A stretch of 32,000 nt of DNA, taken from Vibrio alginolyticus NBRC 15630 = ATCC 17749. Its GTDB lineage: Bacteria; Pseudomonadota; Gammaproteobacteria; Enterobacterales; Vibrionaceae. Numbering within the stretch: the stretch's first letter is position 1; each line of letters opens with the position of its first letter. The notes beneath the pieces are model-generated. The model saw nothing but the letters and a program-made list of their open reading frames with translations, did no database searches and was not told the origin of the DNA. The DNA lies in assembly GCF_000354175.2 (NCBI RefSeq), contig NC_022359.1, positions 270,001 through 302,000 on the forward strand, given 5' to 3'. The position numbers were made by a program, and so were the translations under genes. Below, one piece after another: positions 3,682 through 24,188 of this stretch.

Positions 3682-4398
3682 ATGACATTCACTCGTACAC
3701 TTTTGGCGTTAACGATGGCTATCGTACCTGCCGTATCTTTCGCATCAGAAAAGACCTCAGAACAAAAGCTAGAGGAAATTACTCAGATACTAAAAGAGAA
3801 CCCTCAAATTCTTGATTCATTGCACCAAAACCTGCAAGAGTACATTGCGTATCAGCAGTCATTTGGCGACACCTTGAAGGAGGTTCGTCAATATCTAAAT
3901 GATGGCAAACATTCCTCTTTTGGTGCTGAAACCCCTGAGTTAACCATTATTAACGTAACGGACTACAGTTGCCCTTTTTGTAAACGTTTAGAAGGAGAAC
4001 TGGTCAAAGTTGGTAAGGAATATCCGCAGATAAAAGTGCTTAACCTCAATGTTTCTTTTAAAGAACAATACGAGAAAAACGGCTACAACTCGGCAAGTTA
4101 CGCATTAAATGTTTGGCAAAACCAGCGAGATAAGTACGAACAAGTGCATGAGTTATTGGTGAAAAAACCGGGCGCACATGATGTACGTTCGTTAAAACAG
4201 ATCGCGAAGAAAACGGGGACAGAAGCGCAGCTTGTCGACGACAAAGAGACCAAAGCGCTGCTTGATAAAAACTATCAGTATTTCACGCAACTTGGTTTAC
4301 GCGGCACGCCCGCGTTGATCATTAATGATCAGATCATTCCTGGTTATGTGCCGTTTGACGAGCTAGAAAAAGTCATCGACCAAGAACTGGCGAACTAA
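3682..4398 (+). CDS. Secreted DsbA-family thiol:disulfide oxidoreductase (CPFC active site)
   Basis: 238 aa. Signal peptide MTFTRTLLALTMAIVPAVSFA-SE. Thioredoxin-fold motif VTDYSCPFCKRLE and a cis-Pro-type GTPALII near the C-terminus. SD AGGA lies 6 nt upstream. Confidence 0.85.
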   Translation: MTFTRTLLALTMAIVPAVSFASEKTSEQKLEEITQILKENPQILDSLHQNLQEYIAYQQSFGDTLKEVRQYLNDGKHSSFGAETPELTIINVTDYSCPFCKRLEGELVKVGKEYPQIKVLNLNVSFKEQYEKNGYNSASYALNVWQNQRDKYEQVHELLVKKPGAHDVRSLKQIAKKTGTEAQLVDDKETKALLDKNYQYFTQLGLRGTPALIINDQIIPGYVPFDELEKVIDQELAN

Positions 4399-12278: not shown

Positions 12279-14732
12279 TTAGCGTTTCACCGCTTCAAGT
12301 TTCCAGATATTGTTCACGTAGTCGCGGATTGAGCGGTCTGACGTGAACTTGCCAACAAGGGCGGTATTAAGAATGGCCTTCTTCGCCCAGCCAGCTTGAT
12401 CTTTATATTGTTCGCTCATGTCTTCGTGCGCTTTCACGTAAGATGCAAAGTCCGCAAGACATAAGTACGGGTCACCGCCGTCTAGTAGGCTGTCATACGT
12501 TGCACGCAGTAAGCCTGGTTGACCTGGTGTGAACTCTTCACCCAATAGCAAGTCCATTGACGCTTTGAGTAGGTGATCCGCATTGTAGTAATCAAATGGG
12601 TTGTAACCTTGAGCTTTCAGCGCTTTCACACCTTCAACATCTAGACCGAAGATGTAGATGTTCTCATCGCCTACTTCCTCACGAATCTCAACGTTTGCAC
12701 CATCCATTGTACCGATAGTTAGCGCACCGTTTAGCGCCATCTTCATGTTACCTGTACCTGATGCTTCTTTACCCGCTAGCGAGATTTGTTGAGAAACGTC
12801 AGCCGCAGGGATAATGATTTCAGCCATGCTCACGCGGTAGTCAGGGATGAATACCACTTTCAGCTTGTTACCGATGCGAGGATCGTTGTTCACCTTGTCT
12901 GCAATCTTGTTGATTGCGAAGATGATTTCTTTCGCTAGGTGGTAACCCGGTGCTGCTTTTGCTGCGAAGAACACAACGCGTGGCGTACACTCAAAACCTG
13001 GTTCATTAAGAATACGGTGGTACAGAGACAGTACGTGTAGCAAGTCTAGATGCTGACGTTTGTACTCGTGCAGACGCTTGATTTGGACATCGAAGATTGC
13101 ATTAGTATCGAGCTCGATACCCATGTTCTCTTTCACCCAAGTTGCTAGGCGTTCTTTGTTCTCTTTCTTCACTGCCATGAATTCTTTTTGGAATGTCGCG
13201 TCAGTAGAGTACTTCGCAATACCTTCAAGTTGCTCTAGTTTCGCTGGCCATTCTGGGCCGACTTTCTCAGTGATAAGCTGAGACAGACCTGGGTTACAGA
13301 ACTTCAACCAGCGACGTGGCGTAATACCGTTCGTTACGTTGTGTAGACGTGTCGGGTACATTTCGTGGAACTCTGGGAATAGGTCTTTCTTAACCAATTC
13401 AGAATGAAGTGCTGCTACACCGTTTACTGCGTAAGAGCCGATTACACATAGGTTTGCCATGCGAACCATGCGGTGGAAACCTTCTTCGATGATAGAAAGC
13501 TTCTGTTGCTTCGCGACATCACCCGGCCACATTGCACGTACGTCTTGTAGGAAGCGGTGGTTGATCTCGTAAATGATCTCCATATGACGTGGTAGCAGGT
13601 GCTGGATTAGCGACTCTGGCCATGTCTCTAGTGCTTCTGGAAGTAGCGTGTGGTTGGTGTACGCAAATGTCTTAGAGCTGATTTCCCAAGCCGCTTCCCA
13701 AGCTAAACCTTTTTCATCCATCAGGATGCGCATTAGTTCAGGAATCGCAATCGTTGGGTGCGTATCGTTAAGCTGGATAGTCTCTTGCTTAGGTAGATCC
13801 GCTAGCGAGTAGCCCGCAGCTTCGTGGCGACGTAGGATGTCACGTACAGACGCTGCTGAGTGGAAGTACTGCTGCATTAGACGCAGTGTTTTACCTTTCT
13901 CGTGGTTGTCGTTCGGGTAAAGCACTTTAGTGATGTTACCTGCGTCGATCAGTGCGTGCTGAGCTTCGAAGTAATCACCATTGTTAAAGCTTGCTAGTGA
14001 GAATGGTGCAATCGCCTGACATTCCCAAAGACGTAGCGGGTAAACCGTGTCTGATTCGTAACCCACAATTGGAAGATCCCAAGGCATTGCTCTTACTGTC
14101 ATGCCTGGTACCCATTTGCGAACTTCTTTACCGTTCTCGTTAATCACTTCAACGTGACCGTAGAAACCGATCTCTTGCGCAAGTTCTGGACGCGCAATTT
14201 CCCAAGGGTAGCCTTCTACACCGCGCCAAGCGTCAGGTGCTTCTTGCTGGCGACCATCTTTGAATGACTGTTTAAATAGACCGTATTCGTAATGTAAACC
14301 ATAGCCGACAGTTGGGAATTCTTGTGCCGCACATGAATCCATGAAACACGCAGCCAGACGACCAAGGCCACCATTACCCAATGATGGGTCGCGCTCTTCT
14401 TCTAGCAGATCAGTTAGGTTGTAACCCAGTTCAGCCATTGCTTCTGTTACTTGTTCATACAGACCCATGCTGATTAGGTTGTTACCAGTCAAACGACCGA
14501 TAAGGAATTCTAGCGAAAGGTAGTTAACGCTCTTCGCACTTTTAATGCGTGGATCTTCTTCTGTCGCAAGCAAATCTAGAGTAGTAAATTCAGCCAGAGC
14601 ATGCCCCATTGCTAGGTACCATGCGCGGCTGTCTGCGTTTTCAATCGTATGAGCGTAAGTTACAGATAGGTGTTTCTTTACGCTTTCTTGGAACGACTTC
14701 TTGTCAAATTGTTTTTGTTGAGTAGGTTTCAT
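12279..14732 (-). CDS. malP: Maltodextrin phosphorylase (GT35 alpha-glucan phosphorylase)
   Basis: 817 aa. Pyridoxal-phosphate lysine motif EASGTGNMKMALNGALTIGTMDGANVE. Synteny is malP-malQ divergent from malT, as in E. coli. Confidence 0.93.
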   Translation of the reverse strand: MKPTQQKQFDKKSFQESVKKHLSVTYAHTIENADSRAWYLAMGHALAEFTTLDLLATEEDPRIKSAKSVNYLSLEFLIGRLTGNNLISMGLYEQVTEAMAELGYNLTDLLEEERDPSLGNGGLGRLAACFMDSCAAQEFPTVGYGLHYEYGLFKQSFKDGRQQEAPDAWRGVEGYPWEIARPELAQEIGFYGHVEVINENGKEVRKWVPGMTVRAMPWDLPIVGYESDTVYPLRLWECQAIAPFSLASFNNGDYFEAQHALIDAGNITKVLYPNDNHEKGKTLRLMQQYFHSAASVRDILRRHEAAGYSLADLPKQETIQLNDTHPTIAIPELMRILMDEKGLAWEAAWEISSKTFAYTNHTLLPEALETWPESLIQHLLPRHMEIIYEINHRFLQDVRAMWPGDVAKQQKLSIIEEGFHRMVRMANLCVIGSYAVNGVAALHSELVKKDLFPEFHEMYPTRLHNVTNGITPRRWLKFCNPGLSQLITEKVGPEWPAKLEQLEGIAKYSTDATFQKEFMAVKKENKERLATWVKENMGIELDTNAIFDVQIKRLHEYKRQHLDLLHVLSLYHRILNEPGFECTPRVVFFAAKAAPGYHLAKEIIFAINKIADKVNNDPRIGNKLKVVFIPDYRVSMAEIIIPAADVSQQISLAGKEASGTGNMKMALNGALTIGTMDGANVEIREEVGDENIYIFGLDVEGVKALKAQGYNPFDYYNADHLLKASMDLLLGEEFTPGQPGLLRATYDSLLDGGDPYLCLADFASYVKAHEDMSEQYKDQAGWAKKAILNTALVGKFTSDRSIRDYVNNIWKLEAVKR

Positions 14733-14798
14733 TACGAAATTCTCACGTCTTTTGGTAATTCATCTGCCATACATCGTGCATTTACCTCTGTGAATAAA

Positions 14799-14840
14799 CA
14801 TCCTCCTAATTCTCATCCTTTGAAGGAGGAGGGCTGAGGG
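14799..14840 (-). promoter_or_regulatory. MalT-box cluster of the malPQ promoter
   Basis: In gene (minus) orientation there is AAGGATGAGA (14820-14811) and TAGGAGGATG (14808-14799). In the opposite orientation there is AAGGAGGAGG (14823-14832), followed by GGGCTGAGGG (14831-14840). The cores match the E. coli MalT box GGGGA(T/G)GAGG. The cluster lies 70-110 bp upstream of the malP ATG. Confidence 0.7.
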
Positions 14841-14908
14841 CGTAGAGGGGGTACCATTGCTAGGTTAGTGATCCAAATCTCAACAAAGTGAACTTTGCAC
14901 CAGTTCTT

Positions 14909-14924
14909 AGTGATTTTGATCACA
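14909..14924. promoter_or_regulatory. CRP-like site AGTGA-TTTTGA-TCACA
   Basis: Matches 9/10 of the TGTGA-N6-TCACA core, inside the 734-bp malP-malT intergenic region. The target promoter cannot be assigned from sequence. Confidence 0.4.
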
Positions 14925-15466
14925 ATGGAATGTGAGAAAGGTTAAAACCCGTTCATGACGCTTTTTATAGTCCACTCATCTGATGATGTGAAAATTGTAA
15001 TATCGGTCACATTAACTCGGTCAGCGTAGAAGAACTTTTCGTAATCTATGTGCAACGCGATCTTAACGCTAACGAAACAAACGATATTTAAGTGACGACA
15101 ATCACAAATAAAGGGCGTAGTTGATGGTAAATCCATCAACCCTTGAGAATTAGGAAGTGGATCAAAGTAACGAACATTTCTGATGTCGTAACATCCCACT
15201 CAGCTCACAGGATTGTACGCTTTTTATACAAACTAGAATTAGGCGATGTGAGTTATTTCTAGTTTTCGCTAGCTTTTATATCTAAGTGACCGTATGGAAT
15301 GGTTTTTCAGACGGACGCAAGCCCCAACAGTAGCGACATTATCCGGCATTCAAACAGTGTTTTTGATGCTGATGACATCATTCAGTAAGACGGCTTTCAA
15401 GGGGGCTTTACTAGAATGATCACGTTGCAGTCATTTGGGTATACATAAATAAGGACATAACTACTA

Positions 15467-18175
15467 ATGTGGATTCCATCTAAGCTTACTCGACCAGGAC
15501 GCCTGCACAATGCCATCGTGCGCCCACGAGTGTTGGACTTACTACAGCAAGCGCCTTACTACAAATTGGTTTTATTCCGATCCCCAGCAGGTTACGGAAA
15601 AACGACAATGGCAGCGCAGTGGCTATCCGATAAGCCAAACGTCGGTTGGTACAGCATTGATGACAGCGATAACGACGGCTTTCGCTTTGTAAACTATCTG
15701 CTTCAAGCATTAAACAAAGCCACCAACTTCAGTTGCGCTAACGCACAAAAACTGGCGGAAAAACGTCAGATCTCGTCTTTACGCTCCCTATTTAGCGAAG
15801 TGTTCGCTGAAATGGCTGACTTTCATCAAGAGTGCTACGTGGTGCTTGATGACTACCATTTAATCACGAATGATGAAATCCATGAATCCATGCGTTTCTT
15901 CTTAAAGCACATGCCAGACAACCTCACCGTTGTGGTAACCAGTCGTGCAGCGCCGCCTCTGGGCACTGCAAACTTACGTGTTCGTGATTTAATGATCGAA
16001 ATCGGCAACGAGATGTTGGCGTTTGATACCGAAGAAACCACTCGCTTCTTTAACCAGCGTATCGCCGATGGTATCGATGAAGACATGGCGAACAGCCTAA
16101 GAACCTATGTTGAAGGTTGGCCATCGGCGATGCAGTTGATCGCATTACAAGCCCAACATCAAAACCGCACATTGGCACAAACTGTAGAGTCGGTATCGCA
16201 GTTCAATCACGCGCACTTGTGGGATTACTTGGTCGAAGAAGTGTTTGACTTACTCGATCACGAAACTCGTCACTTTTTAATGCAAGTATCCGTGCTTGAC
16301 CACTTCAATGATGAGTTAGTGTTTGCCCTTACCCAACGCGAAGATGCACTGGGAATGATTGAATCGCTTAACCGTTACGGCTTATTCATTTACCCGCTCG
16401 AAGGGGAACAGAACTGGTTCCGGTTCCATAACTTATTTGGCGAGTTTTTATCTCATGAGCGCCAAGCTCGTATTCCTCAGCAAGAAAAAGATCTCCACCG
16501 CAATGCTGCTATCGCTTGGTTACAACAAAAAGCACCACACCAAGCGATTCATCATGCACAAAAATCGAATGATAAGGACTTAGTGGTAGAGATCCTAAAC
16601 GAATTCGGCTGGAAGATGTTTAACCAAGGCGAACTCAGCACACTGGAAAGCTCAATTAACAAGTTGGACGATGATCTGTTGTTCAGCCACCCAAAACTTA
16701 CGATGCTCCGAGCATGGTTGGCTCAAAGTCAGCATCGTTATAACCAAGTGGGCCACCTGCTTGAAGAAGCGGAAGAGGAACACAAAAAGCGTAACATTGC
16801 GTTAGATATTCATTATCAAGGTCAAGCAAACGCGTTGCTTGCTCAAGTGGCTATCAACAGTAACCAACCAGAAAAAGCTCTCGAATTAGCGGAGCTAGCG
16901 CTTAGCCAACTTGATAACACTATTTACCGTAGCCGAATTGTGGCGACTTCGGTTGTTGGTGAAGTTAACCACGTGCTAGGTAAACTAGACCGTGCTTTGC
17001 CGATGATGCAACAAACTGAAAAGCTAGCTCGTCAGTATCAGGTATATCACCAAGCGTTATGGGCAATATTGCAGCAAAGCGAGATTTTAATTGCACAAGG
17101 TTACGTGCAAGCTGCCTTTGAACTACAAGATTCCGCATTTCGTCTGATTGAAGATCAGCAGCTTCAGCATGTTCCTCTTCATGAATTTTTGCTGCGTATT
17201 CGCGCGCAAGTACTTTGGTGCTGGAACCGACTTGATGAAGCGGAAGAATGCGCGTACAAAGGTCTGCAAATTCTCGAAAACCATTCACCAAGCAAGCACT
17301 TACATAGCTATTCGATGTTGGCGCGTATTGCGATTGGACGCGGTGAATTAGACAAAGCCGGTAAATTCATTGAGCACATCCAACACTTGATGAAACAGTC
17401 GACTTACCACGTAGATTGGACTGCAAACGCTTCACTATCGTTGATTCTATTTTGGCAAGCGCGCGGGAATACCGATGCAATGCAAGAATGGCTCAACACT
17501 GCGGTTCGTCCTGAATCGGCATGCAACCACTTTTCTCAATTGCAATGGCGTAACATTGCTCGCGCCCACATTAACTTAGGCCAATATACCGACGCTCGTG
17601 CTGCGTTAGATTTTCTCCAAGGTGAAGCTCGTCGCACTAACCTAATCACAGATACTAATCGCAACTTAGTGGTTGAAGCGGTCCTTTCTGCTCGCCAAAA
17701 AGATGAGGAGCAAGCCAAGGCACTGTTAAAAGAAGCATTAGTAATGACGAACCAAACTGGCATGGTCGGAAACTTCCTGATTGATGGTGCAACCATTGGC
17801 GGTCTGCTGGAGAAGTTGAGCCTCCGCCATGAACTGGGCGATCTTGAGCGTCACCGTGCTCAACAGTTAATGAAGGACATTTCATCGAATCAACGTAGCC
17901 GGTCAATTCACTTTGATGAAGACTTTATTGAAAAGTTGGTGAATCACCCTAATGTGCCAGAGCTAGTACGTACCAGCCCATTAACACAACGCGAATGGCA
18001 GGTTCTGGGACTGATTTATTCAGGCTTTAGTAACGAGCAAATCGCACAAGAGCTGGATGTGGCAGGTACGACAATTAAAACCCACATTCGCAACCTGTAC
18101 CAAAAGCTTAATATTGCTAATCGTAAAGAAGCCATTGTGACAGCTGAAAATTTGCTGCAGTTGATGGGATACTGA
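15467..18175 (+). CDS. malT: Maltose regulon activator MalT (STAND ATPase with LuxR-type HTH)
   Basis: 902 aa. The N-terminus [21 protein letters not shown]...[16 protein letters not shown] parallels E. coli MalT (MLIPSKLSRP...SPAGYGKTT). C-terminal LuxR HTH is [43 protein letters not shown]. Confidence 0.97.
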
Positions 18176-18215
18176 ACTGCTCGATAAACGGGTTAAAACG
18201 TAAAGTAAAACACAA

Positions 18216-18244
18216 GGGTTGGCGTAACACGTCAGCCCTTTTTT
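18216..18244 (+). terminator. Rho-independent terminator of malT
   Basis: GGGTTGGCG-taaca-CGTCAGCCC (9 bp, two G-U pairs) followed by TTTTTT. Confidence 0.7.
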
Positions 18245-18301
18245 ATGACTGACAGTAAGAGAAGTGCAATTTGCAAAGCACGTAAGTAACGTTGTTCATA
18301 T

Positions 18302-18410
18302 AAAAAAATAGCCAACCGCAATAATCGCAATTGGCTTATATTTAGTGTGAACAAATTGTATTCACTAACAACGTCAGTTGGCTAGGTGACCCTCGGCTTA
18401 AGAAGGGTCG
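18302..18410 (-). ncRNA. qrr: Qrr quorum-regulatory sRNA (Hfq-dependent; Qrr2-5-like with full stem-loop 1)
   Basis: Minus-strand sequence is CGACCCTTCTTAAGCCGAGGGTCACCTAGCCAACTGACGTTGTTAGTGAATACAATTTGTTCACACTAAATATAAGCCAATTGCGATTATTGCGGTTGGCTATTTTTTT. It contains the invariant Vibrio Qrr core GGGUCACCUAGCCAACUGACGUUGUUAGUGAA as I recall it. A 5' stem-loop (GACCCU...AGGGUC) is present. The terminator is a 10-bp stem with G-U pairs that form only on this strand, followed by U7. The predicted length of ~108 nt fits Qrr sRNAs. The 5' end is inferred from promoter geometry (+/- 2 nt). Confidence 0.9.
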
Positions 18411-18420
18411 AGCAGTATTA

Positions 18421-18437
18421 TGCATTAATCATGCCAA
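18421..18437 (-). promoter_or_regulatory. Sigma-54 (-24/-12) promoter of qrr
   Basis: Minus strand reads TTGGCATGATTAATGCA, compared with the consensus TGGCACG-N4-TTGCW. GG and GC are correctly spaced (12 nt apart). This places +1 at about 18410, at the start of the Qrr stem-loop 1. Confidence 0.85.
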
Positions 18438-18507
18438 AATGCAAAGACTTATTTTTGGGCACAAGATCTCATATAAGCTGGATTTATTCACGCGCAAATT
18501 ATCAAAA

Positions 18508-18547
18508 TGCAATTTGACAATGCAAATTGCAATTGCACAATGCAACC
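18508..18547. promoter_or_regulatory. LuxO-type enhancer (UAS) array for qrr
   Basis: TGCAATT-TGACAA-TGCAAAT-TGCAAT-TGCACAA-TGCAACC. It contains TTGCA-CAA-TGCAA at 18533-18545, a full match to both half-sites of the published LuxO consensus TTGCA-W3-TGCAA. There are weaker overlapping sites at 18527-18539 and 18513-18525. The array is centred about -100 to -135 from the predicted qrr start. Confidence 0.7.
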
Positions 18548-18753
18548 AAGATTGATAATTGATAGTAGAGTTAATCATCTCAAAAATGTAAACCAAGCAT
18601 TAAAAGCTCGTTACGGCGGCATTGTCTCTTGGCGGGTAATAAAGATAGGCAATAGATTGGATATAAAACCAAGTAGTTACAGCACTATTTCATACTTTTT
18701 TCATCGCAATGTTTGTATACTCTCTGCCATCGAAACGACTTAGCATTAGAGCA

Positions 18754-19671
18754 ATGAACTACTTAATTACTTTCTTCAAGGGAATCGCCATGGGTGCAGC
18801 AGATGTTGTACCTGGTGTATCTGGCGGCACCATCGCGTTTATCACTGGTATTTACGATACGCTGCTTGAAAGCATTCGACGCATTAACCCCTCACTTTTC
18901 TCTATCTGGCGAAAAGAAGGGTTTAAAGCCGCGTTTAATCACATCAACGGATTCTTCCTAATCGCTCTGTTTGCCGGCATTTTCACCAGTATTGCAACGC
19001 TAGCAAAGTTGATTACTTGGCTTCTTGACACACACCCGATCCCACTTTGGTCATTTTTCTTTGGTCTAATTTTGGTCTCTGTGTATCACATTATTCGTCA
19101 GGTTGAGCAACGCGATCTTGTCCGCTTTGTCATTCTGCTCGTTGGTGTCGGGTTTGCTTATAGTATTACTGTGCTCAAACCTTTACACATGGAACCAACG
19201 GCCATTAACACCTTATTCGCTGGAGCTATCGCGATTTGTGCGATGATCTTGCCGGGTATCTCTGGCAGTTTTATTTTGCTGCTGATTGGCATGTATGCTC
19301 CTGTATTAGCCGCAGTGAAAGGTTTTCAAGTCGATACATTAGCGCTATTTTTGTCTGGCTGCGTGATCGGTTTACTGTCCTTCTCTCACTTATTGTCGTG
19401 GTTACTACGCAAGTTCCGTGATTTCACCCTGATGTTTTTGACTGGATTAATGATTGGTACGTTGCCAAAGATTTGGCCATGGAAAGAAACCATCACTTGG
19501 CGCACCAATTCGAAGGGCGAACAAGTGCCATTGCTACAGCACAACCTATCACCATTTGAATTTGAACACGTGACATCACAACCTTCTCAGTTAGTACTTG
19601 CTGTCGTAATGATGCTTGCAGCCATTGCTCTGGTTTTGGGTCTAGAGAAATTCGCAGATTCAGATAAATAA
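18754..19671 (+). CDS. DUF368 family membrane protein (PopT-type polyprenyl-phosphate transporter family)
   Basis: Track ORF is 18709..19671. I prefer the ATG at 18754, giving MNYLITFFKGIAMGAADVVPGVSGGTIAFITGIYD. A second GISGS repeat (ILPGISGSFILLLIGMY) fits the internally duplicated DUF368 architecture. The protein is polytopic. Confidence 0.85.
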   Translation: MNYLITFFKGIAMGAADVVPGVSGGTIAFITGIYDTLLESIRRINPSLFSIWRKEGFKAAFNHINGFFLIALFAGIFTSIATLAKLITWLLDTHPIPLWSFFFGLILVSVYHIIRQVEQRDLVRFVILLVGVGFAYSITVLKPLHMEPTAINTLFAGAIAICAMILPGISGSFILLLIGMYAPVLAAVKGFQVDTLALFLSGCVIGLLSFSHLLSWLLRKFRDFTLMFLTGLMIGTLPKIWPWKETITWRTNSKGEQVPLLQHNLSPFEFEHVTSQPSQLVLAVVMMLAAIALVLGLEKFADSDK

Positions 19672-19701
19672 CTTTGGTATCAAACACATACTGAACCAAA
19701 T

Positions 19702-19729
19702 AAAAACGGAGCCAATTGGCTCCGTTTTT
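19702..19729. terminator. Terminator after the DUF368 gene (perfect palindrome, bidirectional form)
   Basis: AAAAA-CGGAGCC-aatt-GGCTCCG-TTTTT. Confidence 0.85.
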
Positions 19730-19758
19730 ATCTATTGGCTAAGGGCAAAACATCTCAA

Positions 19759-19786
19759 TTGAAAACTCTGCTGTATTTGATGCAAT
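19759..19786 (+). promoter_or_regulatory. Candidate sigma-70 promoter of the YtkA-like/SCO/EIIB operon
   Basis: TTGAAA (-35), a 16-nt spacer ending in TGa (extended -10), then TGCAAT (-10). This would give a ~120-nt leader. Sequence match only. Confidence 0.35.
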
Positions 19787-19914
19787 AAAGTCCGTCGCGT
19801 TACTAGGAAGCTGGTCACCGAGGTATAACGCACAATTTACCGAGGTCACGAGTTGGCGAGCGGCGCATCTGTGCTACGATGCTCGTAATGTTAAGTGATA
19901 AATGCTGAACCTTC

Positions 19915-20340
19915 ATGAAAGTGTTACAAATCGCCGCTGTTTCAGCCGCATTAGTTGCGGGATTTTATGCCCCGACTCTAATAAAAAGCTTTTCTTCTTC
20001 CACTCAAAGCAAGTCAATAGATGAATACTGCTTTCTCTCTACAACCTCTTGCGTCCAAGAAAATGTTACGATGACACTAAACTCAGAAACTGCTCAACCC
20101 TTGGTTCCTACCACTCTAAATGTTGAGTGGCATACAAGCGATGCTAAGCAACTCATCCTAAGTCTTTCAGGAAGAGAAATGGAGATGGGTGAGCCTAAGT
20201 TTTTGCTGAAGCAAATCGCTCCTGGCCAATATCAAGGTGACATCATTCTCCCGGTTTGCACGGAGGATGCGATGACTTGGGTTGGTGAACTCAGTGATGG
20301 AGAGAATACCGTTTACCCTGCTATAAAAATGCAAAGATAA
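19915..20340 (+). CDS. Hypothetical secreted protein, possibly FixH/YtkA-like Ig-fold domain
   Basis: 141 aa. The N-terminal hydrophobic segment MKVLQIAAVSAALVAGFYA looks like a signal sequence. The central pattern ...LSGREMEMGEPKFLLKQIAPGQYQGDIILP...MTWVGEL resembles the MxMG...GxYxG...W pattern of YtkA/FixH-like domains (recalled, weak). There is no obvious SD. It ends 10 nt upstream of the SCO gene. Confidence 0.55.
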   Translation: MKVLQIAAVSAALVAGFYAPTLIKSFSSSTQSKSIDEYCFLSTTSCVQENVTMTLNSETAQPLVPTTLNVEWHTSDAKQLILSLSGREMEMGEPKFLLKQIAPGQYQGDIILPVCTEDAMTWVGELSDGENTVYPAIKMQR

Positions 20341-20349
20341 GGAATCGTT

Positions 20350-20964
20350 ATGAGCCGCAATTGGTCCCTATTTCTCGTAGCTGCTTTCGCACTCGGGTTT
20401 GGCGTAAAGAGCTATTTAGATAATCAGAACACGAAGCCAGAGCTAGTGGACAGTTCCACCTCTCAACAAACGGTATTGTTTGGGGAAAATAACCAAGCCG
20501 TCAATATCTTCGATGTGAATGACCCTCGCATCCGAGTTGTCTATTTTGGCTTTACTCGCTGCCCAGACGTTTGCCCAACTTCTCTTGCAATGCTGGCAGG
20601 GGCACTGAATCAAATTGACGACGCGCAAAAAGCACAACTACGCCCGATGTTCATTTCTTTAGACCCAGAGCGTGATGAGGCCGATGCATCAGCAAAATAT
20701 GCCCATTACTTCCATCCAATGATTGAAGGCCTATCGGCACCACTTGATGTAACGACACCTTTGGCACACAACTATGGTGTCATTTTCCGTAAGACAGAAT
20801 TGGAAGGCTCGGAACTAAAGTACACGCTGGATCATAGCTCTTACTTTTACTTCTTGAAGCCGGATGGCACGTTAATCACTAAAGTACCGCATACACTCTC
20901 ACCGGCACCGATTGTTGAAGCCATTTCAAAACTAACGACCGAAGGCTCTTCAAATGACGGTTAA
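20350..20964 (+). CDS. SCO1/SenC-family copper chaperone / thiol-disulfide oxidoreductase
   Basis: 204 aa. N-terminal TM anchor. Motif FGFTRCPDVCP (CxxxC) plus a downstream conserved His (LDHSSYFYFLKPDG). SD AAGGA lies 6 nt upstream. Confidence 0.9.
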   Translation: MSRNWSLFLVAAFALGFGVKSYLDNQNTKPELVDSSTSQQTVLFGENNQAVNIFDVNDPRIRVVYFGFTRCPDVCPTSLAMLAGALNQIDDAQKAQLRPMFISLDPERDEADASAKYAHYFHPMIEGLSAPLDVTTPLAHNYGVIFRKTELEGSELKYTLDHSSYFYFLKPDGTLITKVPHTLSPAPIVEAISKLTTEGSSNDG

Positions 20965-21262
20965 GTCAGTGCTGAAGCAATTTTTCAATTTCCTAACTCA
21001 TACCAACCCCAATGTCGAACAAGACGTCGATACGATCATTGACGCCATTGGGGGCATAGAGAACCTGCTAGAAACTGGTGCATGTGCGACTCGGCTGCGC
21101 CTTACCCTCAGAGCGACGTCCGTCATCGATAAGAACGCACTCAAAAATCATGGCGCGCATGGCGTCGTGATATTGGATGATCGTCATGTCCAAATCATAT
21201 ACGGCTTAAAAGCCAACACGTATTCGCAGATTATGGAAGAGCGCATCACAAAACAAAGTTAA
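20954..21262 (+). CDS. Stand-alone PTS EIIB (glucose-family) domain protein
   Basis: 102 aa. IIDAIGGIENLLETGACATRLRLTLRATSVIDKNALKNHGAHGVVILDDRHVQIIYG matches the EIIB-Glc fold signature C-x-T-R-L-R-[LF]-x-L, including the phospho-cysteine position. It overlaps the SCO gene by 11 nt. Confidence 0.8.
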   Translation: MTVKSVLKQFFNFLTHTNPNVEQDVDTIIDAIGGIENLLETGACATRLRLTLRATSVIDKNALKNHGAHGVVILDDRHVQIIYGLKANTYSQIMEERITKQS

Positions 21263-21271
21263 TATTTTTGC

Positions 21272-21315
21272 AGTATAGCTACCCTCTTTAAAAAACGGCG
21301 GCTATACTCTTTTGG
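21272..21315 (+). terminator. Terminator-like hairpin after the EIIB gene
   Basis: AGTATAGC...GCTATACT (8-bp stem, long 21-nt loop) followed by CTTTTGG. Confidence 0.45.
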
Positions 21316-21537
21316 CTTAATTAACTCACTTATTTATTAACCAACGAAGAGGACACAAGATGATTGTATTGAATAACACTAACTGGGCATCGCAAGGGTA
21401 ACCCTAACAGCACCAACTCTGTGGCATAGCCACAACTCCCCTTCTCTGCCCGGTCTTCACCGGGGTCAACTCTATCCGAATTAGACCCTAATGCGATTTG
21501 TATTAAGGCGCTTTGTTGCGTCTGGGATAATTCAATA

Positions 21538-22614
21538 ATGAATCAAACACATACTTTTTGTGACACATTAGTTTCAACTTCAAACCCTCTAAAACAATTG
21601 GGTTGGAAACCATTTTTTCAGCAACAACTGACATTAGACGATTACGACAACACTATCTTTGCTCGTGTAATTGCGCATCACCGAAGTGGTTATTTATTGG
21701 CAACAGAAACTGGGCAAGTTCATCTTAATGCCCACCATTCTTTACCCAACATGACCGTCGGAGACTGGGTAATCTTAAATGAAGATCAGCAATTTGTTCG
21801 CTTACTGGATCGCTTGAGCCTCTTTAGCCGCAAAGCCGCTGGCAGCAAAGTGGCAGAGCAACTCATCGCAGCCAATGTGGATACAGTGTTTATCGTCTGT
21901 TCCCTTAACGACGACTTCAATTTAAGTCGTATTGAACGTTATCTTGCCTTGGCTCATGAAGCCGAAGTCGAACCCGTCATCGTGCTTTCCAAAGCCGATT
22001 TGTGTGACAATACTGATGAACTAAAAAGCCAAGTACAGAAGCTCGACCCTCTATTAGCTATAGAAGCAGTCAACGGCTTAGAAATAGAGAGTGCTTCTAA
22101 ACTCATGACCTGGTGCAAAGAAGGACTAACCCTCGCTTTTATCGGTTCTTCAGGCGTTGGCAAATCAACTCTTGTTAATGCATTACTCGGGCAACAAGAA
22201 CAGGCAACTGGGCATATTCGTGAAGACGATAGCAAAGGGCGACATACAACTACATCGCGCTCTATCCATCTATTACCTGATGGCGGCATCTTGATTGATA
22301 CTCCGGGAATGCGCGAGCTTCAACTAGCAGATTGTGAATCGGGGGTCAGTGAGGCATTTTCTGACATTGAGGCTCTCGCTCAGCGTTGTCGCTTTGGTGA
22401 TTGCCAGCATCAAACTGAGCCGGGTTGCGCAATTCAAACTGCGATTGAAAATGGCAAACTGGAAGTTCGTCGTTTCAATAACTATCAAAAACTATTGCGA
22501 GAACAAGCCTTTAACGGTGCGACTTTGGCAGAGCAACGAGCTCAAAGTCGACAGTTCGGGAAACTCACTCGAAATGCCATGAGTGATAAGCGCAGGCGCC
22601 AACAAAGTTATTAA
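21538..22614 (+). CDS. rsgA: RsgA/YjeQ-type ribosome small-subunit-dependent GTPase (paralog-like)
   Basis: 358 aa. The GTPase motifs are circularly permuted: LSKADL (G4), [16 protein letters not shown] (G1) and DTPGMRE (G3). C-terminal zinc knuckle is [16 protein letters not shown]. Confidence 0.9.
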
Positions 22615-22644
22615 TTTGTTGCGTTTGAGTTGTCAATAAAATCA

Positions 22645-22667
22645 AAGGAGACGAAAGTCTCCTTTTT
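22645..22667 (+). terminator. Rho-independent terminator of the rsgA-like gene
   Basis: AAGGAGAC-gaaa-GTCTCCTT followed by TTT. Confidence 0.85.
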
Positions 22668-22970
22668 AACAACTTTATTAAAAACCATTACTCATAACTA
22701 ATGATAATTTTCAACATAAAAATCTTATTTAAATAACATTGAGCAAACATTTAATCCAAAAACAAACTAAAACTAGACACAAAATATTACCAAGCTAAGA
22801 TATGTGATATTCAGCAAGAAAATGGCTGAATTTATAAAAACAGGATAATTGATAATCATGTGTCTTAGTGACCAGAAGCAATGCTCACCCCTTGTAATAT
22901 AAGGGCATTATCGCCGTGTAATGATGGACTATTGCCCTGCCACTCTGGCATAAAATTGCAGGAATGATGT

Positions 22971-24188
22971 ATGCAACACAACAGCCTCGTTGCCCGATAT
23001 GCTCGTGGTAACCTCGTCGTCCAGATCCTTGTCGGTATCGTCTTTGGTATTTTGCTCGCGACAATTTCTCCAAGCCATGCCGAAAGCGCGGGATTAATTG
23101 GTAGCCTTTTTGTCGGTGCGCTTAAAGCGATCGCGCCAATTCTTGTGTTTATTTTGGTTGCCGCTTCAATTGCAAACCAAAAGAAAAACCAACACACTTA
23201 CATGCGCCCAATCGTTGTACTGTACCTGATGGGTACATTCTTCGCGGCGCTATCAGCAGTGGTTCTAAGCTTCCTTTTCCCGACCAATTTAACGCTTGTC
23301 ACCGGCGCTGAAGGTGCAACGCCTCCTCAAGGTATTGCTGAAATTCTACGCACATTGTTGTTTAAACTGGTCGACAACCCAGTAAATGCACTAGTAGAAG
23401 CAAACTACATCGGCATTCTTGCTTGGGGTGTGGGTCTGGGTCTTGCACTACACCACGCATCGGCAACAACGAAGGCCGTATTTGAAGATCTAAGCCACAG
23501 CGTGTCTCACATTGTGCGCTTTATCATTCGTCTTGCACCATTTGGTATCTTTGGCTTGGTTGCTTCAACGTTTGCGACAACGGGCTTTAGCGCGCTAGCA
23601 AGCTACGCACACCTTCTGGCGGTTCTTCTTGGCGCAATGATGATCATCGCACTCATTGTAAACCCGGCGATCGTGTTCGTTAAAACCAAACAAAACCCTT
23701 ACCCACTTGTATTCCGTTGTCTGCGTGAAAGTGGTGTAACAGCGTTCTTCACTCGTTCAAGTGCGGCGAATATTCCAGTAAACATGGCACTATGTGAGAA
23801 GCTAAAACTGGACGAGGATACGTACTCAGTATCTATTCCTCTAGGTGCGACCATCAACATGGCTGGTGCTGCAATCACTATCACAACGCTAACGCTTGCA
23901 GCTGTGCACACTATGGGTATCGAAGTTGATCTACTGACTGCGCTACTTCTAAGTATTGTAGCTGCGGTTTCTGCATGCGGCGCATCAGGTGTTGCAGGTG
24001 GCTCTCTACTACTTATCCCACTTGCGTGTGGCCTGTTTGGTATCTCAAACGACGTAGCAATGCAGGTTGTAGCGGTTGGCTTCATTATCGGTGTGATTCA
24101 AGACTCTGCAGAAACTGCGCTAAACAGCTCAACAGACGTTGTCTTTACGGCAGCAGTTTGTAAATCAGAGCAGCAAAAAGCTCAGTAA
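22971..24188 (+). CDS. sstT: Serine/threonine:sodium symporter SstT (DAACS family)
   Basis: 405 aa. The N-terminus ...[25 protein letters not shown]...[27 protein letters not shown] is collinear with E. coli SstT as recalled. SD AGGAA lies 6 nt upstream. Confidence 0.92.

Follow-up and report, generated by a model that had tools for sequence, protein, structure and literature searches.

Qrr sRNAs form the central switch of quorum sensing in Vibrio. The RNA has been characterized in V. harveyi: the stem-loop SL1 stabilizes it, shields it from RNase E and pairs with aphA as well as a small number of other targets, SL2 is the core and main target-pairing region, SL3 is accessory, and SL4 is the terminator (PMC3730234). 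SL1 of Qrr1 is 9 nt shorter (PMC3730234). In the published layout of qrr control regions, a distance of 30-40 bp separates the LuxO sites from the LuxR site upstream of them (PMC2680268). Fis was found to bind between the LuxO and sigma-54 sites, and also beside the -35 region (PMC2680268; Tague et al., bioRxiv 10.1101/2021.07.01.450815).

The qrr2 locus has already been studied experimentally in detail in V. parahaemolyticus and V. harveyi, together with the layout of its promoter and its regulators. In V. parahaemolyticus, qrr2 occupies the intergenic region between VPA1623 and VPA1624 (Zhang et al. 2012, PMC3323551), which code for a LuxR-family regulator (VPA1623; PMC8276238) and a DUF368 protein (VPA1624; PMC9876793). 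The genes qrr3 and qrr4 are found at VPA1240-1241 and VPA0199-0200, respectively (PMC3323551). The OpaR box of qrr2, GACTAACTCAATTGTTAATA, was mapped by DNase footprinting to -167 to -148 (PMC3323551). The qrr genes of this species possess the -24 element TTGGCA and the -12 element AATGCA, and in qrr2 a sigma-70 promoter with the -35 element TTGAAA and the -10 element ATAATA overlaps the sigma-54 promoter (Tague et al., bioRxiv 10.1101/2021.07.01.450815). Mutagenesis showed that an rpoN mutant transcribes qrr2 from this sigma-70 promoter (Tague et al., bioRxiv 10.1101/2021.07.01.450815).

A Qrr RNA Gene between malT and a DUF368 Gene

The window, i.e., the whole stretch of 32 kb of DNA analyzed here, was scanned with 4227 Rfam models at gathering thresholds. 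The sole match was Qrr (RF00378) at 18302-18410 on the minus strand, with 110.9 bits (E = 7e-21) over model positions 1-108 of 108. A reading of the letters alone, hereafter the sequence-only reading, had claimed an unannotated Qrr locus between malT and the DUF368 gene, not a new family, and had proposed the covariance model as a check. The score is more than two-fold higher than the gathering score of 50 bits, and the full-length RF00378 match bears out the assignment to a known family. When the region 18100-18800 was rescanned permissively, only chance-level matches were obtained apart from Qrr. The genes luxO, rpoN and hfq and the Qrr target genes are absent from the window.

The host belongs to the Vibrionaceae, as expected for Qrr: in its part 14711-23659, the window is 91% identical at the nucleotide level to V. 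diabolicus over 9 kb and 100% identical over 3918 nt to CP014044.1 (GCA_002953975.1), and the exact record of the DUF368 protein is labelled 'Vibrio harveyi group'. The gene, its parts and its neighbors are as follows.

15467-18175, plus strand: malT (902 aa), Pfam TPR_MalT and GerE, convergent with qrr2, with its own terminator at 18214-18240
18302-18410, minus strand: qrr2 sRNA gene, Rfam RF00378, full length
18388-18409, minus strand: SL1, from the minimum free energy (MFE) fold and the consensus fold of 53 orthologs
18361-18392, minus strand: 32-nt Qrr core GGGTCACCTAGCCAACTGACGTTGTTAGTGAA / GGGUCACCUAGCCAACUGACGUUGUUAGUGAA, invariant in 53 orthologs and in upper case in the Rfam consensus
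18347-18365, minus strand: SL3, from the MFE and ortholog folds, with a loop that is the most variable part among orthologs
18302-18336, minus strand: SL4, Rho-independent terminator with a 12-bp stem (18336-18310) followed by A and U7 (18308-18302)
18754-19671, plus strand: DUF368 / VCA0040-like undecaprenyl-phosphate translocase gene, Pfam PF04018 (E = 1.6e-104), divergent from qrr2

Both neighbors named in the sequence-only reading were confirmed by the Pfam matches. Its statement that the gap contains no credible ORF also held, with mechanical ORFs of 40-78 aa only, and its gap size of 510 bp did not: by ORF coordinates the gap between malT and the DUF368 gene comprises 533 nt (18176-18708), or 578 nt if translation starts at 18754. 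The latter start, M16 of the 320-aa ORF, is the likely one, and the start at 18709 is probably wrong, since the 305-aa form is on public record and an exact look-up of the 320-aa form in public protein records found nothing. Most orthologs align only from residue 14-16 onwards.

The malT stop codon lies about 130 nt from the qrr2 terminator. In V. parahaemolyticus, deletion of the malT-like gene vpa1623 lowered a quorum-sensing reporter (PMC8276238). It is speculative, and worth considering, that deletions of this type could affect qrr2 or the conserved block downstream of it described below.

Fold and Conservation of the RNA

The predicted transcription start is 18410/18409 and the 3' end falls inside the U-tract 18308-18302, giving a length of roughly 102-109 nt. 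The MFE fold of the 109-nt RNA consists of four stem-loops with -34.6 kcal/mol (z = -4.66), and none of 200 shuffled sequences folded as well. In comparison, the opposite (plus) strand folded worse, with -27.2 kcal/mol (z = -2.37). The MFE fold matches the SL1-SL4 architecture of PMC3730234, and the consensus fold of the orthologs agrees with it. SL1 aligns without gaps to Rfam positions 1-24 and is of full length; thus, the RNA is not of the Qrr1 type with its 9-nt shorter SL1.

The 32-mer that the sequence-only reading had named as the invariant Qrr core is present at 18392-18361 and did not vary in any of the 53 aligned orthologs. It covers the 3' side of SL1, the whole of SL2 (18384-18366) and the start of SL3. 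In the same alignment, the invariant run including this core amounts to about 40 nt, from the loop of SL1 via SL2 to the 5' arm of SL3. Overall, the RNA is 99% identical to that of V. diabolicus and 88-96% identical to more than 60 Vibrio orthologs.

The terminator stem contains the wobble pairs U-G, U-G and G-U. Two such pairs had been noticed before, which is correct for the 9-bp stem of Rfam, and the full 12-bp stem has three. They exist on the minus strand only, as had been claimed, and become A-C mismatches on the plus strand. At columns 80/108, 86/102, 87/101 and 89/99 of the ortholog alignment, terminator-stem pairs were changed on both sides such that pairing was kept.

Assignment to qrr2

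Four observations identify the paralog, left open in the sequence-only reading, as qrr2: the position corresponding to VPA1623-VPA1624, the identity of VPA1624 as the DUF368 protein, that of VPA1623 as a LuxR-family regulator, and the mapping of qrr2 primers to the window and to an aligned V. parahaemolyticus locus. The order malT-qrr-DUF368 of the window equals VPA1623-qrr2-VPA1624, and the V. parahaemolyticus locus (L085), retrieved via its DUF368 protein, has the same gene order and aligns with the window over the whole gap. L085 matches all five published V. parahaemolyticus qrr2 primers and the OpaR box exactly. In the window, three of these five primers match in colinear order with 0, 1 and 3 mismatches, and the EMSA forward primer and the primer-extension primer have no match within 3 mismatches. 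Since the two non-matching primers lie in the diverged upstream stretch and in the SL3 loop, they reflect species divergence and do not speak against orthology.

As Qrr2-5 are highly alike in sequence, and qrr2 and qrr5 were reported to be divergent among species (Tague et al., bioRxiv 10.1101/2021.07.01.450815), it might be asked if the gene is another paralog (qrr3, qrr4 or qrr5) or a decaying duplicate instead of a functional qrr2. This is very improbable: the flanks fit the published position of qrr2 and not those of qrr3 or qrr4, qrr2-specific primers and the OpaR box map to the locus, and decay is at odds with the full-length Rfam score and with an intact promoter, enhancer and terminator. 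That the conserved sequence is a small protein-coding gene deserves still less credence and can practically be dismissed. A 40-aa ORF (18232-18354, minus strand) and a 55-aa ORF (18429-18596, minus strand) do exist mechanically, but the former spans only the terminator and the latter only the promoter and enhancer, so that neither fits the conserved interval. Moreover, the approximately 40 invariant nt lack third-position variation, which is typical of RNA, and the covariance-model match and the fold account for the sequence fully.

The locus is almost certainly qrr2 of a Harveyi-group Vibrio, encoding a presumably Hfq-dependent, trans-acting sRNA of about 105 nt. It is real, functional-looking and already known. 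Judged by its sequence, it has all the features expected of a Qrr gene and of qrr2; the overlapping sigma-70 promoter is a candidate, with a -35 element weaker than that of V. parahaemolyticus. It belongs to the family, adopts the family fold, carries the promoter and enhancer motifs in conserved form and is orthologous to qrr2. From the published work on orthologs we infer that it would depend on LuxO, RpoN, Hfq, Fis and OpaR, and its targets would likewise be those known from orthologs.

Promoter and Upstream Control Elements

All sequence elements named in the sequence-only reading were found on the minus strand at the coordinates it had given, and together with the core and the four-stem-loop fold, the promoter, enhancer and terminator fit the Qrr family and are kept in dozens of Vibrio species. 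The control elements upstream of the RNA gene are listed below, with positions relative to the predicted start.

18421-18437, minus strand: sigma-54 promoter TTGGCATGATTAATGCA (TTGGCA-N5-AATGCA), with GG at 18435-18434 (-25/-24) and GC at 18423-18422 (-13/-12)
18416-18444, minus strand: sigma-70-like promoter overlapping the sigma-54 promoter, with the -35-like TTGCAT at 18444-18439, a 17-nt spacer and the -10 ATAATA at 18421-18416
18449-18476, minus strand: block TTATATGAGATCTTGTGCCCAAAAATAA (-66 to -39), conserved in the Harveyi clade and located between the enhancer and the promoter
18508-18545, minus strand: LuxO-type enhancer, with TTGCATTGTGCAA at 18545-18533 (-135), TTGCAATTTGCAT at 18532-18520 (-122) and a TTGCA half-site at 18512-18508
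18557-18576, minus strand: candidate LuxR/OpaR-type box GATTAACTCTACTATCAATT (-166 to -147)

The -24/-12 promoter had been proposed at 18437-18421, where it is indeed present, and it matches the TTGGCA and AATGCA elements of the V. parahaemolyticus qrr genes. Within it, TGGCATGATTAATGCA (18436-18421, TGGCAT-N5-ATGCA) is the only match of the window to TGGCAY-N5-WTGCW. Since about 0.4 chance matches to this pattern are expected in the window, the motif by itself carries little weight. More telling is its position, from which +1 is predicted at 18410/18409, where the Rfam alignment begins. The offset is conserved: the T of TGGCA is found at -26 in all 65 aligned sequences (the window and 64 full-length orthologs).

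The enhancer-like TTGCA-N3-TGCAA site that had been reported at 18533-18545 is present, and a second site in tandem was found at 18532-18520. Each of the two sites has one mismatch to TTGCA-W3-TGCAA, and the central triplet of TTGCATTGTGCAA is TTG. With six pentamers in 60 nt, as compared to a background of 3.4 per kb, the enhancer is the densest cluster of TTGCA/TGCAA in the window. Between -137 and -100, each of the 65 aligned sequences has one or more LuxO-type sites with one mismatch at most. The number and phasing of the LuxO sites differ among clades (-135/-122 versus -113/-100). When 18495-18700 of the window was compared with 3790-4000 of the V. diabolicus locus (L001), the enhancer and the sequence upstream of it were heavily rearranged, with the flanking proteins being 98-99% identical.

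Further upstream, the candidate box GATTAACTCTACTATCAATT shares 14 of 20 positions with the aligned OpaR box of V. parahaemolyticus, and the layout of the window matches the published spacing of LuxR and LuxO sites. The LuxR box of V. harveyi qrr2, TGATGATTTATTTATCACTT, occurs at the same upstream position in the orthologs of V. owensii and Vibrio sp. M260121. Conservation of the block TTATATGAGATCTTGTGCCCAAAAATAA between enhancer and promoter extends from the window to V. diabolicus, V. parahaemolyticus, V. harveyi, V. owensii, V. jasicida and further species. In view of the Fis binding reported between LuxO and sigma-54 sites, it is probably a site for a DNA-bending protein such as Fis.

The sigma-70-like element raises the question of how strictly the gene is coupled to LuxO and sigma-54. 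Its -10 ATAATA is identical to that of V. parahaemolyticus qrr2, in which an ATA-to-CCC mutation abolished rpoN-independent expression (Tague et al.), a promoter scan gave a 9/12 match to sigma-70 at 18445-18417, and the element is retained by orthologs of the Harveyi clade and largely missing elsewhere: 20 of the 65 aligned sequences have ATAAT at the -10 position, and with few exceptions they come from this clade. Substantial transcription of the Qrr gene from these -35/-10 elements, partly uncoupled from LuxO and sigma-54, would be compatible with this. There is a precedent, cited by Tague et al., for the promoter layout: in a GlrR-activated sRNA gene, a sigma-70 -10 element is likewise superimposed on the sigma-54 -12 region. 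The analogy is one of layout only, since that RNA is unrelated, is activated by GlrR and not by LuxO, and belongs to a different pathway. Against a substantial contribution, the -35 element TTGCAT agrees with TTGACA at just 3/6 positions, as compared to 5/6 for the TTGAAA of V. parahaemolyticus, and in that species the sigma-70 route was seen mainly without RpoN (Tague et al., bioRxiv 10.1101/2021.07.01.450815). Furthermore, ATAAT overlaps the conserved sigma-54 -12 region, so that part of its conservation may stem from sigma-54. On balance, a substantial sigma-70 contribution is possible but somewhat doubtful; it would alter how the gene is controlled and not what the gene is, and sigma-54-dependent qrr2 is the reading followed below.

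Conserved Block Downstream of the Terminator and Linkage to the DUF368 Gene

Directly downstream of the terminator, a further conserved sequence was found.

18264-18301, minus strand: 38-nt block ATATGAACAACGTTACTTACGTGCTTTGCAAATTGCAC, directly after the qrr2 terminator, between the convergent terminators of qrr2 and malT

This block is near-invariant in nine Harveyi-clade species including V. parahaemolyticus, and its flanks diverge. It contains the putative LuxO-like palindrome TTGCAAATTGCAC (18276-18264), which agrees with the LuxO consensus at 12 of 13 positions. In other species, insertions of 9 to about 300 nt part the block from the terminator. A dispersed repeat was ruled out, since all six metagenome occurrences of the block are in malT-qrr2 context. 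A sigma-54 promoter was rejected as well: most species have GTGC and not TGGC, and where GG is present, the spacing from GG to GC is 11 instead of 10. The same applies to a sigma-70 promoter, for which neither strand gave a scan match and no spacing is conserved among species. The permissive scan of 18100-18800 revealed no Rfam RNA in the block.

Some of the insertions between the qrr2 terminator and the block are palindrome-rich and about 30-300 nt long (e.g., GTATACCCAAGTGACTT...). They were observed in V. rotiferianus, V. jasicida, V. harveyi and relatives (loci L003, L004, L006, L007 and L009). Their appearance points to a small mobile or REP-like element that has a TATA-type hot spot for insertion.

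The linkage of qrr to the DUF368 gene was followed in a scan for DUF368 proteins with one genome per species, which yielded 80 Vibrio loci (L001-L080); the source species of the window was not among them, and V. cholerae was neither among the retrieved loci nor among the best 120 proteins. In 68 of the 80 loci, qrr lies divergently upstream of the DUF368 gene, about 240-520 bp from the retrieved DUF368 match. Since malT is the other neighbor in only 42 of these DUF368 loci, the linkage of qrr and DUF368 is the older and more stable one. A literature search found no paper naming qrr together with VCA0040, and nothing on the V. harveyi neighbors VIBHAR_04845 and VIBHAR_04847.

The 38-nt block could be a functional second operator, in which case LuxO or another regulator would be bound between the convergent terminators and would modulate qrr2 output or read-through. 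Separately, the linkage of qrr and DUF368 could reflect an input of quorum sensing into the recycling of the cell-wall lipid carrier, with coupling via the shared divergent control region of qrr and the undecaprenyl-phosphate translocase gene. Both ideas are unlikely to be right, and in the literature searched, neither a second operator nor a link between quorum sensing and the lipid carrier was found.

Proposed Regulation and Significance of the Locus

The regulatory circuit of qrr2 in this genome would follow the established circuit of Vibrio. At low cell density, phosphorylated LuxO would bind the tandem TTGCA-N3-TGCAA sites about 110-135 bp upstream and, with a DNA-bending protein on the intervening conserved block, would activate sigma-54 RNA polymerase at the -24/-12 promoter. 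The transcript would extend from 18410/18409 to the SL4 terminator. With Hfq, its invariant SL1/SL2 sequence would pair with target mRNAs, such that luxR/opaR-type mRNA would be repressed and aphA activated. The candidate LuxR/OpaR-type box at -166 to -147 may provide the known feedback activation of qrr2-4, and the overlapping sigma-70 -10 element ATAATA may give basal or sigma-54-independent transcription, as in V. parahaemolyticus qrr2.

Nothing here alters what is known of the Qrr family. The practical yield is a precise coordinate map of qrr2 and its control elements in this genome, together with two small leads, namely the conservation of the downstream block and that of the linkage to DUF368. 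Correct annotation of this qrr2 copy matters to readers of the region, e.g., because deletions of the malT-like gene end about 130 nt from qrr2.

Comparison with Known qrr2 Genes

The RNA of the window has the same stems as Rfam RF00378, which it matches over the full length and well above the gathering score. It differs from the RF00378 consensus by a one-base insertion in each of the loops of SL3 and SL4.

Among the closest known counterparts of the locus is qrr2 of V. parahaemolyticus RIMD 2210633. The flanking genes (a MalT-like LuxR-family regulator and DUF368) and their orientation, the sigma-54 -24/-12 elements and the -10 ATAATA are the same, and the block at -66 to -39 is conserved. 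An OpaR-type box occurs with the same spacing, the two RNAs are almost identical, and the 38-nt block downstream does not differ at all. Differences were seen in the SL3 loop and in a few bases of the terminator, and the two loci are diverged around the LuxO sites and upstream of the OpaR box. In addition, V. parahaemolyticus has 9 extra nt between terminator and downstream block, and its sigma-70 -35 element is TTGAAA, whereas that of the window is TTGCAT.

Qrr2 of V. harveyi / V. campbellii BB120 (VIBHAR_04846; Tu and Bassler 2007; Tu et al. 2008, PMC2680268) is an ortholog by synteny, and the V. harveyi ortholog among the retrieved loci (L007) is located on chromosome 2. The window follows the architecture described in PMC2680268, in which a sigma-54 promoter is preceded by LuxO sites and, 30-40 bp upstream of these, by a LuxR site. 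The V. harveyi gene differs by an RNA identity of about 90%, by another LuxR box sequence and by an insertion of about 100 nt between the terminator and the downstream block.
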